Virus record (IMG/VR): IMGVR_UViG_2706794686_000014 | Direction: 5' to 3' (one strand) | From: a virus | Taxonomy: Duplodnaviria; Heunggongvirae; Uroviricota; Caudoviricetes | DNA length: 7,332 nt | Part shown: one piece after another, positions 1-7,332 of the stretch | Layout of the letters: each line of letters begins with the position of its first letter | How positions within the stretch are numbered: position 1 is the first letter of the stretch | Notes under the pieces: model-generated | Told to the model about the DNA's origin: nothing | What the model saw: the letters and a program-made list of their open reading frames with translations, nothing else | Database searches by the model: none | Program-made: the position numbers and the translations under genes

Positions 1-824
1 TGTTTGATGACCGTATTTATCAGATGACTAATGGCGTTAAAGCTGCCGACCGTATTATTTACACTGTCATGTTGAATGAACAAAAGTTTTATCACGATAA
101 GGGGCAATATTATACCCCTTCATATGCTCATCTTGGTCAGTATGCTGGAATCACAAGAACATCCGTGATTGCATGTATGAAACAACTTGAGGCACATGGT
201 TTAATCAAGAAAACTAACGTTGCAAGCAATCAGTGTGTTATTAAAGTTTATTCACTTGATGAAGTACCGGAGGTTTTAACAGAGCTTACAGCTAAGGAAG
301 CCAGAAAGGCAAAGCTGGAGTCTAAAGTTACTCAGTCAGTCAAGAAAGATGACCCACTGAGTCAAAATTCTTTACCCACTGAGTCAAAATTTTTTACTCA
401 GTCAGTCAAAATCTTTGACACGTATAATAACAGTAATAACAAGAAAGAACTTATTAATAACAATAAAGAAGATGACTTTGAAGAAGAATATTTTAAGAAG
501 GGAGCTTCGCTCTGTGATTCACATGAATGTGATTCTCTTGGTATTGAAGAGGCTATTANNNNNNNNNNNNNNNNNNNNNNNNNNNNNNNNNNNNNNNNNN
601 NNNNNNNNNNNNNNNNNNNNNNNNNNNNNNNNNNNNNNNNNNNNNNNNNNNNNNNNNNNNNNNNNNNNNNNNNNNNNNNNNNNNNNNNNNNNNNNNNNNN
701 NNNNNNNNNNNNNNNNNNNNNNNNNNNNNNNNNNNNNNNNNNNNNNNNNNNNNNNNNNNNNNNNNNNNNNNNNNNNNNNNNNNNNNNNNNNNNNNNNNNN
801 NNNNNNNNNNNNGAACAAGGTTAG
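1..824 (+). CDS. Replication initiator-like protein (lambda O-type, winged helix-turn-helix N-terminal domain); 5' partial, 3' end uncertain because of N block 559-812
   Basis: The frame is open from the window edge through the first ATG at 24, which has no Shine-Dalgarno, so the true start is probably upstream. The N-terminal region (YTPSYAHLGQYAGITRTSVIACMKQLEAHGLIKK) looks like the HTH DNA-binding domain of phage replication initiators. Iterons and an AT-rich tract lie inside the ORF, as in lambdoid O genes. With the N block taken at face value the frame stops at 822-824. Confidence 0.55.
   Translation, partial: FDDRIYQMTNGVKAADRIIYTVMLNEQKFYHDKGQYYTPSYAHLGQYAGITRTSVIACMKQLEAHGLIKKTNVASNQCVIKVYSLDEVPEVLTELTAKEARKAKLESKVTQSVKKDDPLSQNSLPTESKFFTQSVKIFDTYNNSNNKKELINNNKEDDFEEEYFKKGASLCDSHECDSLGIEEAIXXXXXXXXXXXXXXXXXXXXXXXXXXXXXXXXXXXXXXXXXXXXXXXXXXXXXXXXXXXXXXXXXXXXXXXXXXXXXXXXXXXXXEQG
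328..410. repeat. Iteron-like direct repeats inside the replication gene (candidate origin of replication)
   Basis: TTACTCAGTCAGTCAA occurs perfectly at 328-343 and 394-409. CCCACTGAGTCAAAATT occurs perfectly at 353-369 and 375-391, spaced 22 bp (about two helical turns). All four copies share an AGTCA(A) core. Confidence 0.6.
415..500. other. AT-rich tract next to the iterons (candidate DNA-unwinding element)
   Basis: Strongly A/T-biased stretch (e.g. cgtataataacagtaataacaagaaagaacttattaataacaataaagaag) immediately 3' of the iteron array. The frame-1 ORF the track opens at 415 is most likely an artefact of this tract. Confidence 0.45.
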
Positions 825-1253: not shown

Positions 1254-1430
1254 CTATTTATTTACTGAAATCTCTATCTCAACACGAAGAAGTTTAAGTC
1301 GAATTGTAAGCTTTGTCTTTTTTGTAATGACTCGATTCATAACGCAAAACACCAATAGCACAATAAATACCGCAAAGCCCAACGAGCTAAAACGATGAGA
1401 TTCAATAATTGCTGTGAAAAAATCATGCAT
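1254..1430 (-). CDS. Small single-pass membrane protein (58 aa from the ATG; function unknown, could be a type I toxin-like or superinfection-exclusion peptide)
   Basis: The track calls GTG at 1460, but the in-frame ATG at 1430-1428 has a good SD (AAGGA at 1441-1437, 6-nt spacer). The product MHDFFTAIIESHRFSSLGFAVFIVLLVFCVMNRVITKKTK... has one hydrophobic helix followed by a basic tail. It is the only credible minus-strand gene. Confidence 0.5.
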   Translation of the reverse strand: MHDFFTAIIESHRFSSLGFAVFIVLLVFCVMNRVITKKTKLTIRLKLLRVEIEISVNK

Positions 1431-1480
1431 TAATTTTCCTTTTGTGAAAGGAAACAGCACCTGTATCAGCCCCTACAACC

Positions 1481-1531
1481 ATAGTATCATGTAAATGAGG
1501 TACTGACAATATGTTAAATAGATGTTAAGAT
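1481..1531. promoter_or_regulatory. Candidate back-to-back divergent promoters sharing the -35 region
   Basis: Plus strand: -35 CTGACA 1503-1508, 17-nt spacer, -10 TAAGAT 1526-1531. Minus strand: -35 TTGTCA (complement of 1504-1509), 17-nt spacer, -10 TACTAT (complement of 1481-1486). ATGTTAA is repeated at 1511-1517 and 1522-1528. Confidence 0.35.
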
Positions 1532-1567
1532 TGTAGTATGAGTAAGAGATTTAAGGAGATTTTTACA

Positions 1568-1858
1568 ATGACTCACACAGTTACGCGCCTTTTGCCAGAG
1601 GCATTTGAACGACTGGCAGCAATCAAAGCCAAATATCCCGATATGAAGCACACAGCGCTTGTTGGGGAGATTTTAAAAGAGTCGGTAAACCTTAGCCCTT
1701 TCGATAACGTTAAGGGCGTCGCAGAGGGTTCTAAGGCCATCAGAATCACAACGGGCCAACTGGAACTACTCAAAGCACAGTCCGCAGTAGCAGGTTGCTC
1801 AATGATTCAGGTGTTAAGCGCTAAGGTCCATCAACTGGCGGATAGATTGGAGGTTTAA
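1568..1858 (+). CDS. Small protein with ribbon-helix-helix-like N-terminus (putative DNA-binding regulator or antitoxin-like), 96 aa; alternative start 1538
   Basis: AAGGAG at 1553-1558 sits 9 nt before ATG 1568; the upstream in-frame ATG 1538 has no SD. The N-terminus THTVTRLLPEAFERLAAIKAKY...HTALVGEILKE fits a strand-helix-helix pattern. Its stop overlaps the next start (TAATG at 1856-1860). Confidence 0.6.
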   Translation: MTHTVTRLLPEAFERLAAIKAKYPDMKHTALVGEILKESVNLSPFDNVKGVAEGSKAIRITTGQLELLKAQSAVAGCSMIQVLSAKVHQLADRLEV

Positions 1859-2079
1859 TGTGTTATAGGTTCCAATATTCCACACTTGGCCGCCACCTAA
1901 TCAGACAGAATTTAGCAGATGCTGAATTTGAAGATGTGACCCTCAAAGCAAACAAACGATTAAAACCCTCTCAAATCCACCAGCTTAAACACGAATTAAA
2001 GCCACTGGTAATACTCGACTATAACGACCCTGAACAGCTTGAGCAGGGAATTAAGCTTATTTCTGAATGGGGTGCTTGA
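1858..2079 (+). CDS. Hypothetical protein, 73 aa, translationally coupled
   Basis: ATG 1858 overlaps the upstream stop, with GGAGG at 1849-1853. No recognisable domain. Confidence 0.5.
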   Translation: MCYRFQYSTLGRHLIRQNLADAEFEDVTLKANKRLKPSQIHQLKHELKPLVILDYNDPEQLEQGIKLISEWGA

Positions 2080-2294
2080 TGAAAACTATCACAGTACAAC
2101 TTCAGACTAATAAAGCATTTCGTTATTTTGAAAACTTGCTTGAGTTATACGAAGGATGGGGAAGTATCCACGGCAAAGATGATATCTATCTTCACTTGTC
2201 AGCCCCTAACTATTCTCTGAAGACTCCGGTTAAGCAAAGCTGGTTAAAAGACTACGGTCACCAGATGGGGCTATTAGTCTCAGACTTGAGCTAA
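2067..2294 (+). CDS. Hypothetical protein, 75 aa (71 aa if it starts at ATG 2079, which overlaps the upstream stop as TGATG)
   Basis: Open frame to TAA 2292-2294; third gene of the coupled operon; no recognisable domain. Confidence 0.5.
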   Translation: MGCLMKTITVQLQTNKAFRYFENLLELYEGWGSIHGKDDIYLHLSAPNYSLKTPVKQSWLKDYGHQMGLLVSDLS

Positions 2295-2823: not shown

Positions 2824-2847
2824 TGTTACCAATCTGTTAAAAAGCTG

Positions 2848-2901
2848 TTGACAAATAACCTTAAGCATGAGATGATGGTAATAGGGAAGAGCAACTCTTC
2901 C
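2848..2901 (+). promoter_or_regulatory. Candidate promoter (perfect -35) followed by a 17-bp palindrome that could be an operator
   Basis: TTGACA at 2848-2853; only weak -10 candidates follow (GATGAT 2871-2876, or TGgTAATAG around 2876-2884). Perfect palindrome GGAAGAG-caa-CTCTTCC at 2885-2901. Confidence 0.3.
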
Positions 2902-2942
2902 TGAATTAAACTATTAATCATTCTACATCAATGATAGTTATT

Positions 2943-2998
2943 CTGAAAGGTGCAATGCTTTTCGCTACATGACCTTTCAGGTTAGTCTGAGAGGTCAT
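2943..2998 (+). other. Two mutually exclusive stem-loops (possible RNA switch or attenuator-like element, or protein-binding palindromes)
   Basis: Stem A pairs CTGAAAGGT 2943-2951 with ACCTTTCAG 2972-2980 (9 bp, 20-nt loop). Stem B pairs ATGACCT 2969-2975 with AGGTCAT 2992-2998 (7 bp, 16-nt loop). They share 2972-2975, so both cannot form at once. Confidence 0.35.
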
Positions 2999-3024
2999 CT
3001 CGAAAAGTACTCTTGTTCATTCGT

Positions 3025-3046
3025 TTGAATCCTTTTTGAATCCTTT
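3025..3046. repeat. Perfect tandem 11-bp direct repeat (TTGAATCCTTT x2)
   Basis: Copies at 3025-3035 and 3036-3046 in non-coding DNA. Checked against a tRNA T-arm and rejected. Confidence 0.5.
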
Positions 3047-3221
3047 AGATGTTTTAATTTCTTCACCTTATGAATGGCCCTTTATAAGAAATTATCTAGG
3101 GCTATTCAGCTTTTAAAAAGCATACTTGGCAAACCGCCTTTTAAGTCTCTTCTAAGTTTAGATAGGCTGTCAGGTGTGCTTTTTAAAAACTGAAACACTT
3201 CCGCTTAGAAGAGGAAAAGCA

Positions 3222-3458
3222 ATGANNNNNNNNNNNNNNNNNNNNNNNNNNNNNNNNNNNNNNNNNNNNNNNNNNNNNNNNNNNNNNNNNNNNNNNNNNN
3301 NNNNNNNNNNNNNNNNNNNNNNNNNNNNNNNNNNNNNNNNNNNNNNNNNNNNNNNNNNNNNNNNNNNNNNNNNNNNNNNNNNNNNNNNNNNNNNNNNNNN
3401 NNNNNNNNNNNNNNNNNNNNNNNNNNNNNNNNNNNNNNNNNNNNNNACAGCGCCTTAG
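3222..3458 (+). CDS. Small protein (about 78 aa) of unknown function; all but the start and last codons are hidden by N block 3226-3446
   Basis: GAGGA at 3211-3215 sits 6 nt before ATG 3222. The same frame emerges from the N block and stops at TAG 3456-3458. The track's GTG 3174 start is less likely. Confidence 0.4.
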   Translation: MXXXXXXXXXXXXXXXXXXXXXXXXXXXXXXXXXXXXXXXXXXXXXXXXXXXXXXXXXXXXXXXXXXXXXXXXXXTAP

Positions 3459-4238: not shown

Positions 4239-6419
4239 ATGAGCAAATTCACAGTTGATAGTTTTATCGTTGAACTTAGTTTCAGTGAAAACGTTATTAA
4301 GGGCTTGCAAAGAGTTGAAAAGGCAGCTTTGCAGTCAGCACAAAGAATTGAACGCAATTTGAATAGAGCGTTTAAGGTCGATACCAAGCAACTTGACAGC
4401 AATCTGACAAGTTCTTTAGGGCAGCTTGAAAGGAAGTTTAATAAGACCTTTGACAAGATTGAGCAGAGAGCAAGAAGCACAAAAGCATTTCAGTTTGCCA
4501 CCAGATTTAATGACACTGTTAATCCTCCAAAACAATCAAGGCAACCACGAATTAGCGGAAACAGAGCAATCACAGCAGCGCATAGCGTGAATATGTCTAA
4601 GCTTGGTGATATTAATCCGCTGATGGCTAAAATGTTTAAAGCACAGTATTACAGCTTAAGCGGTAAGGCTGGTAATATTGGAAGTGAAAAGTTTAACGCT
4701 GAACTTGCAAAATTAAATCAATCTCTTCGTGAAACGTTGAATAAACTCAGGTCACAGACAAAGACCGCCAGCATTAACAATACAAGCGACGCATTTAATA
4801 ATCTTGCAAGCAATGCGATTAAATTATCTGGTGCATTTTACTCTGTGATGGGTGCTCTTAACGCTTACAAGGCCATTATGAATGCAGGTCTTAAACGAGA
4901 TTCCGCACAGAGAGCCGCTAAGTTTGTACTTGGTGATAAAGCATCTGAAGCTGAGGTATTTATTCGAAATTTAGCAGACAAGACAGGTCTTAATATCTCT
5001 GAAGGGCTATCAAGCTACGCTAAGTTTGCAGCAGGTGCTCAGGGTTCTATGTCACAGGAACAGACACAGGAGCTATTTGGTAATGCAACGGCTATGAGTC
5101 GCTTAATGGGGCTTTCTAACGATGAGCTAAACGGCATTTTGAGAGCATTTGAGCAGATGGCGAGCAAGGGCAAGATTCAGGCTGAGGAATTACGTGGGCA
5201 GTTAGGTGACCGTATGGCTGGTGCATTTAAGCTATTCGCTGAAGCATTGGGTATGACTGCTACAGAGCTTGATGCAGCCATGAAAAACGGGAAGGTACTT
5301 TCCGCTGATACTCTCCCTAAAGTCGCTAAACAGATGGGCTTGATGATTGATAAAGCGGGTGGCTGGGCTGAAGTCACTAAGAGCACTCAGACAGCTTTAG
5401 GTAAGTTAGCAAACAATTGGGATGATACGATGGTGAAAATCTTCTCAGGTTCACAGGATGAGCTAAACGGCTTCTTATCCAGCCTGAGTAACCTGCTTAG
5501 TGAAATGGGGATGAGTTCTTCTATCGCTGGTGATGCTATCGGTGGACTTATCGACATGCTTAAAGCTGGTGTAGATGATATTCGCGTATTCAATAACACC
5601 ATTGAAGGCTGGATTTTACAGACTAAGAAGTTCTATTACAGCCTTGATGACACTAAACGAAAACTACTTGATGAAGTCGGTGATGGTTTTATCAACTTCG
5701 TCAAAGGTCTTGCTATAGCGTTATCTGCAAAGACGCTATTCAGTGCTACTACAGGGGTTATGAACCTGACAAGAGCAATCACAACGTTAGGTACAAGAGC
5801 TAATCAGGTGGCTGGTCAGGTAGCTACTGGTAAAGGTGGTGGAAAACTGAAAGGTGTAGCTGGTGGTGTAGGTAGTGCTCTTGCAATTGGTTATGCTGAT
5901 GACGGTTATGAAACAGCGTTAGCATTAGCTTCAATGATTCCACAAATCAGAGGCGTCACTCTTGGTTTATATGCATTGAAGAAAGCACTGGATTTTATGA
6001 ATCAGGAAGTAGTCAAAAACGCTAATATGCATCCGTCTGGGGTAGGTGTGGGTAGTGACTTTAATCCCGTGTATTCTGGTGACCCTAATAAACCGAATAT
6101 GATTAACGAAGGATGGAGTAGAATTTTTAGTTCAATGGGTGAATTGTTTAACAATGCCACAATGAATATTGCAAGATTCAATCATCCAGAGTTAAACAAC
6201 ATTAAGCAAGATTCAGCATTAACGAGTGCAGATATTCAGGGTCTGAGGGATGAAATTAGTGCTTTGAGTAAGCGTATTCAGGAGCCAGTGAAAGTTTCAC
6301 TTGGTGGTCAAGTTGTCGTTCGACCAGATGAACCATCTTTCTTTACTTTCAATCAATCAGCTAATGACCAGTTCACGCAGGATATGCTCTTAAGTTCAAG
6401 CTATCCAGAGGAAGAATGA
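4239..6419 (+). CDS. Phage tail tape measure protein (726 aa)
   Basis: SD AAGAGGTG at 4223-4230, 8 nt before ATG 4239. Long helical N-terminal region. The central stretch SRLMGLSNDELNGILRAFEQMASKGKIQAEELRGQLGDRMAGAFKLFAEALGMTATELDAAMKNGKVLSADTLPKVAKQ matches the conserved tape-measure domain. A glycine-rich hydrophobic segment (GKGGGKLKGVAGGVGSALAIGYA) follows, typical of these proteins. Confidence 0.85.
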   Translation: MSKFTVDSFIVELSFSENVIKGLQRVEKAALQSAQRIERNLNRAFKVDTKQLDSNLTSSLGQLERKFNKTFDKIEQRARSTKAFQFATRFNDTVNPPKQSRQPRISGNRAITAAHSVNMSKLGDINPLMAKMFKAQYYSLSGKAGNIGSEKFNAELAKLNQSLRETLNKLRSQTKTASINNTSDAFNNLASNAIKLSGAFYSVMGALNAYKAIMNAGLKRDSAQRAAKFVLGDKASEAEVFIRNLADKTGLNISEGLSSYAKFAAGAQGSMSQEQTQELFGNATAMSRLMGLSNDELNGILRAFEQMASKGKIQAEELRGQLGDRMAGAFKLFAEALGMTATELDAAMKNGKVLSADTLPKVAKQMGLMIDKAGGWAEVTKSTQTALGKLANNWDDTMVKIFSGSQDELNGFLSSLSNLLSEMGMSSSIAGDAIGGLIDMLKAGVDDIRVFNNTIEGWILQTKKFYYSLDDTKRKLLDEVGDGFINFVKGLAIALSAKTLFSATTGVMNLTRAITTLGTRANQVAGQVATGKGGGKLKGVAGGVGSALAIGYADDGYETALALASMIPQIRGVTLGLYALKKALDFMNQEVVKNANMHPSGVGVGSDFNPVYSGDPNKPNMINEGWSRIFSSMGELFNNATMNIARFNHPELNNIKQDSALTSADIQGLRDEISALSKRIQEPVKVSLGGQVVVRPDEPSFFTFNQSANDQFTQDMLLSSSYPEEE

Positions 6420-6514: not shown

Positions 6515-7320
<806 letters not shown>

Positions 7321-7332
7321 TTTGGCATCCAT

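Follow-up and report, generated by a model that had tools for sequence, protein, structure and literature searches.

A divergently transcribed four-gene module with a predicted double-RHH protein in a small chromosomal island of Shigella and Escherichia coli

Our analysis covered a DNA stretch of 7,332 nucleotides (hereafter the window), in which a gene for a small membrane peptide on the minus strand is followed, on the plus strand and in the opposite direction, by three small genes that we call g1, g2 and g3. A preliminary description of this DNA had reported a 58-aa minus-strand gene and three coupled plus-strand genes (96, 73 and 71 aa) between replication and structural genes. The four ORFs are positioned as it claimed, and the surroundings are also as it had them, with an initiator-like gene upstream and tail genes downstream. 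The features, with their positions in the window, are as follows.

1237-1254, no strand assigned: GC-rich hairpin flanked by T runs (terminator scan; minus-strand match 1254-1237)
1254-1430, minus strand: membrane-peptide gene, 58 aa (coding 1257-1430, stop TAG 1254-1256, ATG at 1430)
1435-1454, minus strand: leader hairpin, pairing the Shine-Dalgarno (SD) sequence AAAGGAAA with the upstream UUUCCUUU
1473-1536, no strand assigned: imperfect inverted repeat CTACAA ... TTGTAG, with the shared -35 region at its centre of symmetry
1481-1509, minus strand: predicted promoter P(-), with -35 TTGTCA (1509-1504), a 17-nt spacer and TG-extended -10 TACTAT (1486-1481)
1489-1528, plus strand: candidate operator of ATGTWRA direct repeats, from a repeat search (copies at 1489, 1511 and 1522)
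1503-1531, plus strand: predicted promoter P(+), with -35 CTGACA (1503-1508), a 17-nt spacer and TG-extended -10 TAAGAT (1526-1531)
1568-1858, plus strand: g1, 96 aa (ATG at 1568, SD AAGGAG at 1553-1558)
1858-2079, plus strand: g2, 73 aa, its start overlapping the g1 stop
2079-2294, plus strand: g3, 71 aa, its start overlapping the g2 stop; no recognisable domain

The overlapping stop and start codons of the preliminary description were borne out, since both junctions among the plus-strand genes are one-base overlaps (TAATG and TGATG), and these are accompanied by SD-like motifs. Longer forms of three genes were rejected. For the membrane peptide, a GTG start at 1460 (68 aa) was ruled out by the 61-aa variant, in which an in-frame stop closely precedes the homologous ATG. 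The ATG at 1538, which would give a g1 of 106 aa, is not conserved, being out of frame through a 1-nt indel in the related loci L001, L002 and L005 and missing in the second clade of g1, and a start at 2067 for g3 (75 aa) is missing from the 69-aa variants.

Across the 13 loci that were compared, and in the Citrobacter and E. albertii copies as well, the reading frames are open, the one exception being locus L008, in which g1 is frameshifted and g2, g3 and the membrane-peptide ORF are intact. Between variants, pN was 0.18-0.42 and pS 0.53-0.84, with pN < pS for every gene, and the synonymous differences were near saturation. That the ORFs stay open as such diverged variants, with pN well below pS, goes beyond chance and indicates that the four genes are real. 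The 58-aa gene is predicted by some gene callers, and RefSeq annotation frequently skips the 58-aa and 73-aa ORFs. These omissions would suit the view that the ORFs are functionless leftovers of a decaying element with a fortuitous architecture, as would a number of promoter-like sites at chance level (see below) and the state of the Shigella copy of the island, which is decaying as judged from its broken Dit-like gene and inserted IS elements. All four module genes are intact in that copy, however. The conserved open frames, the pN below pS in every gene, a nearly invariant intergenic core and a gene order that is constant at four or more insertion sites make this view very improbable. In the decaying Shigella copy, the module may no longer be doing its original job.

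Profile searches against Pfam, PHROGs, NCBIfam and PADLOC returned nothing significant for any of the four proteins or their variants, in agreement with the earlier statement that no domain beyond an RHH-like fold was recognised, and PDB sequence searches with family profiles gave chance-level matches only. Homologues among 5.8 billion and 1.84 billion proteins formed narrow families confined to Escherichia, Shigella, Citrobacter and Kluyvera. The four protein families are new, and the regulatory design is familiar. An anti-defence island, also raised in the preliminary description, is unsupported, since PADLOC gave no match. DNA of the same variant type is almost identical across strains, even beside neighbouring genes that differ by 30%, which indicates that the region is a mosaic of old recombining cassettes. 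The types of g1, of g2/g3 and of the membrane peptide reassort freely across loci, and BLAST breakpoints were located near 1396, 1860 and 2008.

The RHH-like call for g1 holds, and it is made more precise by the predicted structure, which has two RHH units per chain. The model, whose confidence is low (pLDDT 60), consists of a strand-helix-helix unit at residues 3-36, a variable linker at 37-55 and a second strand-helix-helix unit at 57-93, and its best fold matches were TraY, single-chain Arc and AvtR. The RHH hallmark, a strand-helix-helix unit with an N-terminal DNA-reading strand, is present in the model. RHH proteins also have a G-x-S/T/N turn that starts the second helix. In unit 2 of g1, the turn reads G76-C77-S78 and varies little or not at all; unit 1 carries K/S-H-T, which lacks the glycine and in which H28 is invariant. 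No match of g1 to an RHH profile was found in Pfam, NCBIfam, PHROG or PDB-sequence searches, even at E values of 1 to 10. Judging from the model, we predict that g1 is a DNA-binding protein with two RHH units in a single chain. Its sequences form two clades with about 70% identity. An internal duplication was not detectable, the two halves having no sequence similarity in hhalign.

Two of the fold matches belong to natural double-RHH proteins of other systems. TraY, the relaxosome accessory protein of the F plasmid, has two RHH units per chain, as predicted for g1, but there is no sequence similarity between them and g1 has no match to Pfam TraY. Moreover, none of the island copies examined contains relaxase or conjugation genes, and instead of an origin of transfer, it is a (predicted) divergent promoter at which g1 lies. 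The transcription regulator AvtR, from an archaeal lipothrixvirus, has a double RHH like that of the g1 model, although it is of archaeal-virus origin and has no sequence similarity to g1.

Between the membrane-peptide gene and g1, the preliminary description had placed two promoters face to face with a shared -35 region around 1503-1509. The shared -35 region is retained in our prediction, but the two promoters stand back to back and point away from each other. Scanning positions 1150-2500 gave three promoter-like sites against 3.1 expected from shuffles, so that the promoter call rests on conservation. In 12 of 12 relatives, the predicted -35 of P(+) is a perfect TTGACA, and the predicted -10 of P(-) is TATTAT or TAATAT in most of them. 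The intergenic core of about 60 nt is nearly invariant in the 13 loci, while the flanking genes have diverged to 40-70% amino-acid identity, and it is the most conserved DNA of the region. The Citrobacter-type loci L024 and L025 have the same control-region design.

The ATGTWRA array spans the spacers of both predicted promoters. The spacing of the repeats in the relatives is exactly 11 bp; L004 and L002 carry four copies at 11-bp steps, and the fourth copy, ATGTTGA at about 1500 in most relatives, is degenerate in the window. This is the only ATGTWRA cluster in the island, and clusters appeared in 2 of 2000 shuffles, with the motif defined after inspection. The E. albertii copies keep the membrane gene, g1 and a long g2, but their intergenic region is only 81 nt long and contains one exact ATGTWRA repeat, in the opposite orientation, instead of an array. 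The array is therefore not universal, which makes the idea of an operator less general. The outer arms of the inverted repeat fall at both predicted transcription starts, which lie near 1474 on the minus strand and near 1538 on the plus strand, and its paired positions are C/G in the window and T/A in L003, with one mismatch in most other loci. Note that the terminator scan gave no terminator-like site after g3.

The membrane peptide is a single-pass protein with a short N-terminal tail that contains a conserved ESHRF motif, a hydrophobic helix of about 16 residues and a basic C-terminal tail that has a conserved strand-turn-strand pattern. An N-out/C-in topology is suggested by the positive-inside rule only. 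Four variants of 58-62 aa always occupy the same position, and the three that were aligned are about 40-48% identical. Equivalent leader hairpins, different in sequence, are predicted in the other variants, including that of E. albertii. The folding energies of these hairpins were no better than those of shuffles (z from -0.04 to -1.45), so that the leader hairpin is suggestive only. At the other end of the gene, the hairpin at 1237-1254, which separates it from a convergent gene of 98 aa (stop at 1242-1244), is likely to be a bidirectional terminator.

From these properties, the peptide might be the effector of the module, either an inner-membrane toxin (abortive infection, or a toxin of hok-like type I character) or a superinfection-exclusion protein that would keep the DNA of Felix O1-type or other phages from entering, with the RHH operon controlling it. 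Such a role would fit a small bitopic protein with a basic cytoplasmic tail, the pairing of its SD in a predicted leader hairpin that four sequence variants retain, and the control region that the peptide gene has in common with g1. The variants are old, with saturated synonymous sites, and each type is near-identical across strains, as expected of specificity or arms-race genes. In addition, the island encodes a tape-measure protein, and since the tape measure of a phage comes into contact with the inner membrane, the two may be connected. On the other hand, the peptide had no PADLOC or PHROG match, and the scans revealed neither an antisense promoter nor an RNA family: there were no plus-strand promoter-like sites inside 1254-1460, the Rfam scan, like the tRNA scan, gave nothing real, and the two predicted mRNA leaders of the divergent pair do not overlap. 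An antisense RNA of a weak or unconventional kind is conceivable. The conserved strand-turn-strand tail suggests a specific partner rather than a generic pore, and the intact peptide ORF in L008, despite its frameshifted g1, is a poor fit to a derepressed lethal toxin. On balance we consider an effector role of the peptide unlikely.

The second gene of the plus-strand series occurs in short and long forms. The short forms of g2 (73 and 76 aa) are 56% identical, and alignment with the long forms (124-141 aa) showed that the latter add a C-terminal three-helix HTH to the g2 domain. The model of a long g2 (pLDDT 72) has an N-domain, homologous to the window g2, with the order strand-strand-strand-helix-strand-helix, followed by a linker and a three-helix bundle. 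The fold matches of this bundle were HTH domains of resolvases, TrpR, small terminases, sigma region 4 and Mu C. No informative fold match, including those in BFVD, was obtained for the N-domain; weak BFVD matches to homing endonucleases had suggested a GIY-YIG-like domain, which was rejected on its strand order, its conserved residues and the poor scores. The forms of g3 (71 and 69 aa) are 49% identical, and g3 was found only alongside short g2, which suggests that short g2 and g3 stand in for one long DNA-binding protein. That g3 is the split-off HTH of the long g2 was rejected, as the two have no similarity.

The preliminary description had suggested a toxin-antitoxin module. This could be an addiction module of type II, perhaps with three parts, that would keep the island stable, with g1 as RHH antitoxin and autorepressor and g2 and/or g3 as toxin. 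Type II operons (ParD, CopG/TacA, MazE-like) are indeed alike in gene order, gene size, translational coupling, an RHH DNA-binding protein (predicted for g1) encoded first, and location on mobile elements. However, no toxin is recognisable in the module. Neither g2, g3 nor the long g2 matched a toxin family in Pfam, NCBIfam, PADLOC, PHROGs or PDB sequences, and the fold matches of the long-g2 model were HTH DNA-binding domains and no toxin fold, so that the long g2 probably carries an HTH for DNA binding. Two RHH units and a 19-residue linker fill g1 and leave no toxin-binding tail. The supposed partners are not co-inherited, since each of the two g1 clades is found beside the 73+71 cassette as well as beside long forms, unlike cognate pairs, and a natural variant, L008, tolerates the loss of g1. 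Taken together, the lack of a toxin family or fold and of a g1 tail, the free reassortment, the L008 locus and the HTH on long g2 disfavour the toxin-antitoxin suggestion, which we regard as improbable.

To place the module in its surroundings, the whole window was compared with bacterial and phage genomes. With two masked N runs (559-812 and 3226-3446) left out, it is 100% identical to Shigella sonnei chromosomes, in which ordinary coding DNA underlies both runs. Whole-window identity to the best complete E. coli genomes is only about 92%. The stretch 1200-2440 is matched in 128 of 5,426 complete E. coli genomes, in every case on the chromosome and as a mosaic, and coverage of at least 80% was reached in only 16 of the 128. 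The element in which the window lies is an integrative chromosomal island of Shigella and E. coli of about 11 kb (about 10.9 kb in intact copies), not a phage, and our literature search found no paper that describes it. Its order begins with a small serine recombinase, a Dam-type methylase, an HTH initiator-like protein and a 98-aa orphan; the four-gene module comes next, followed by orphans of 101, 236 and 68 aa, and the order ends with a 726-aa tape-measure protein, a Dit-like tail protein and a large serine recombinase. Serine recombinases thus lie at both ends. The DUF72 gene yecE is interrupted by the island in L003, L004 and L024, and the other sites of the island are between ymdF and wrbA, between yciI and tonB and, in E. 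albertii, a position near msyB.

The HTH protein upstream of the module resembles replication initiators (PHROG, E = 2e-11), and three 22-bp iterons lie within the initiator-like gene itself (338-416 of the window). The only structural genes of the island are those for the tape-measure and Dit-like proteins; capsid, terminase, portal and lysis genes are absent from every island copy examined. The 726-aa protein matches Pfam TMP_3 and is 33% identical to that of the Felixounavirus phage garuso, the similarity being much higher at the N-terminus, and the Dit-like protein is 72% identical to the product of the garuso gene directly after the tape-measure gene. In part of the Dit-like gene, the DNA is 92-93% identical to that of many Felix O1-like phages. 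A search by tblastn of 50,697 phage genomes, with nine island proteins joined as one query, gave no match, and this holds for the four module proteins too. The 68-aa island protein was considered as a tape-measure chaperone and rejected, since it has no similarity to the Felixounavirus chaperone.

With a probability that we put at roughly 0.45, a little short of even, the region is a module for transcriptional control in a small island that can integrate and replicate and that carries Felix O1-type tail genes. It would work from two back-to-back sigma-70 promoters with one common -35 region. The leftward promoter would express the 58-aa inner-membrane peptide, whose ribosome-binding site would be partly masked by the leader hairpin, and the rightward promoter would express the translationally coupled operon g1-g2-g3. 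One g1 chain, with its two RHH units, would be equivalent to one RHH dimer, and several copies would most likely bind side by side on the 11-bp-phased ATGTWRA repeats, across both spacers. We infer from this arrangement that g1 binds at the repeats and represses both promoters, so that its own operon and the membrane-peptide gene would be shut off together, with an Arc-like negative feedback that gives a burst of expression and then silence. In the same model, g2 and g3 would be the two-protein equivalent of the g2-HTH fusion in other island variants, and in view of this equivalence they would most likely be a DNA-directed regulator or effector and not a toxin; they would act downstream, and their targets may be island genes or an infecting phage. 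What g2, g3 and the membrane peptide do in this scheme is our proposal from sequence and predicted structure. The control module and an effector role of the membrane peptide are not mutually exclusive.

The closest parallel to this control module is the immunity I region of phage P22, in which Arc and Mnt, both RHH proteins, are encoded at overlapping divergent promoters; Arc is a homodimer of 53-aa chains, and the leftward gene encodes the second repressor. The module resembles it in having a putative RHH repressor encoded first in the operon that one promoter of an overlapping, divergent pair (predicted here) would drive, and a likely operator inside the promoter, for which the candidates here are the ATGTWRA repeats over both spacers. 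A burst followed by self-shut-off, with effector genes co-transcribed downstream, would be expected by analogy. In contrast, g1 is a (predicted) single-chain double RHH instead of a homodimer like Arc, the leftward gene encodes a membrane peptide and not a repressor, and g2 and g3 have no similarity to the antirepressor Ant.

The island has an integrase and its own replication functions and is without capsid, terminase and lysis genes, which is the gene content by which phage satellites are recognised. It is conceivable, although on present evidence we think it unlikely, that the island family represents undescribed satellites of virulent Felix O1-like myoviruses of Escherichia, Shigella and Citrobacter, with the module as a helper-sensing switch. 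In that case, the double-RHH protein would keep the island silent, and the reassorting cassettes of g2/g3 (or g2-HTH) and membrane peptide would determine which helper phages in particular are sensed or attacked. PLE of Vibrio cholerae is a satellite of the virulent myovirus ICP1. Like PLE, the island is a small chromosomal element that encodes a large serine recombinase, has a replication initiator and an origin of its own, lacks genes for capsid and packaging, and is clearly tied to virulent myoviruses, here through the Dit-like protein (72% identity) and DNA of up to 93% identity to Felixounavirus. Unlike the case of PLE, the satellite likeness here is one of gene content, and family searches gave no homology to PLE genes. 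The Shigella and E. coli island also has its own tape-measure and Dit-like tail genes, and to our knowledge PLE is not known for either. If the satellite reading is true, the pairing would be of the PLE/ICP1 kind, and unusual in that the island brings its own tape-measure and Dit-like proteins.

By itself, the module adds four orphan protein families, among them a (predicted) single-chain double-RHH protein of a kind that is rare in nature, and a pair that exists split or fused, the g2 domain being accompanied by g3 in the one case and by an HTH in the other. The island, a compact and widespread element that has apparently not been described before, is perhaps a larger story than the module; it combines serine recombinases and its own origin and initiator with two tail genes close to those of virulent Felix O1-type phages. 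Phages of the Felix O1 type serve for typing Salmonella and as therapeutic phages. Should the island prove to be a satellite, or a defence element that targets tails, the module would be the obvious place for its induction logic, and the variable cassettes could explain differences between strains in their susceptibility to Felix O1-type phages. One related locus was found among the GTDB species representatives, and one in IMG/VR.

The window forms the inner part of an island of about 11 kb, intact copies of which were found in the loci L003 (5770-16716), L004 and L002 (12398-23562). The island is bounded on both sides by serine recombinases and also carries genes for a Dam methylase and an initiator-like protein; just two structural genes are present, one encoding the tape-measure protein and the other a Dit-like tail protein. 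Across E. coli, Shigella, Citrobacter and E. albertii, the island occupies at least four different chromosomal insertion sites. The island resembles a satellite-type element, and a literature search found no published description of it.

Features of the island within the window, by window coordinates
338-416: three 22-bp direct repeats, ACCCACTGAGTCAAAATTCTTT-like, within the initiator-like gene
2747-2824: 25-aa hydrophobic micro-ORF, MTLVILWMTLGLFVGCWVGNTVNKN, whose start codon and the stop codon of the 101-aa gene overlap as TAATG
2849-2854: TTGACA, within the gap 2825-3173
Within 2825-3173: 11-nt tandem repeat, two copies of TTTGAATCCTT
4239-6419: tape-measure gene
6576-7269: Dit-like gene

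The two masked N runs in the window (559-812, 254 nt; 3226-3446, 221 nt) each correspond to 244 nt in the identical Shigella genomes, and therefore the window coordinates 3' of each run are offset from the real sequence.

The 22-bp repeats are probably iterons of the replication origin of the island. At the left end of the island, the orientation of the small recombinase gene of the resolvase/invertase type depends on the strain (L003:6196-6765 on the minus strand, L004:5840-6388 on the plus strand), and the adjoining Dam methylase gene is present in some copies and absent or truncated in others; this segment may be invertible or recombining.

The tape-measure protein shows 33% identity to its counterpart in the Felixounavirus phage garuso, and the Dit-like protein shows 72% identity to the product of the next gene in that phage. 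Many Felix O1-like phages also match the window at 6600-7035 with 92-93% DNA identity. These similarities of both proteins and of the DNA indicate that the island and virulent phages have recently exchanged sequence. At 6576-7332, the Shigella copy has only a pseudogene of the Dit-like protein: residues 77-255 are out of frame with residues 1-49, and about 27 residues are absent. From about 7262 onward, the window matches DNA that is common to many plasmids of Shigella and E. coli and is most likely the end of an IS.

The micro-ORF, which carries no annotation, encodes a second small membrane peptide and was kept in all 13 loci compared, with amino acid changes. The following stretch of about 350 nt (2825-3173), up to the 236-aa gene, contains no convincing ORF and gave no match in Rfam; this gap, in which the TTGACA and the tandem repeat are located, could carry a promoter or a packaging site, or encode an RNA.

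The E. albertii copies (L026:8743-9680 and L027) retain the membrane peptide, g1 (97 aa), the first gene of the operon opposite, and the long form of g2, the second gene. In these copies the membrane peptide gene comes right after a shorter initiator-like gene, and the intergenic region is just 81 nt long and lacks the four-repeat array, the candidate operator.
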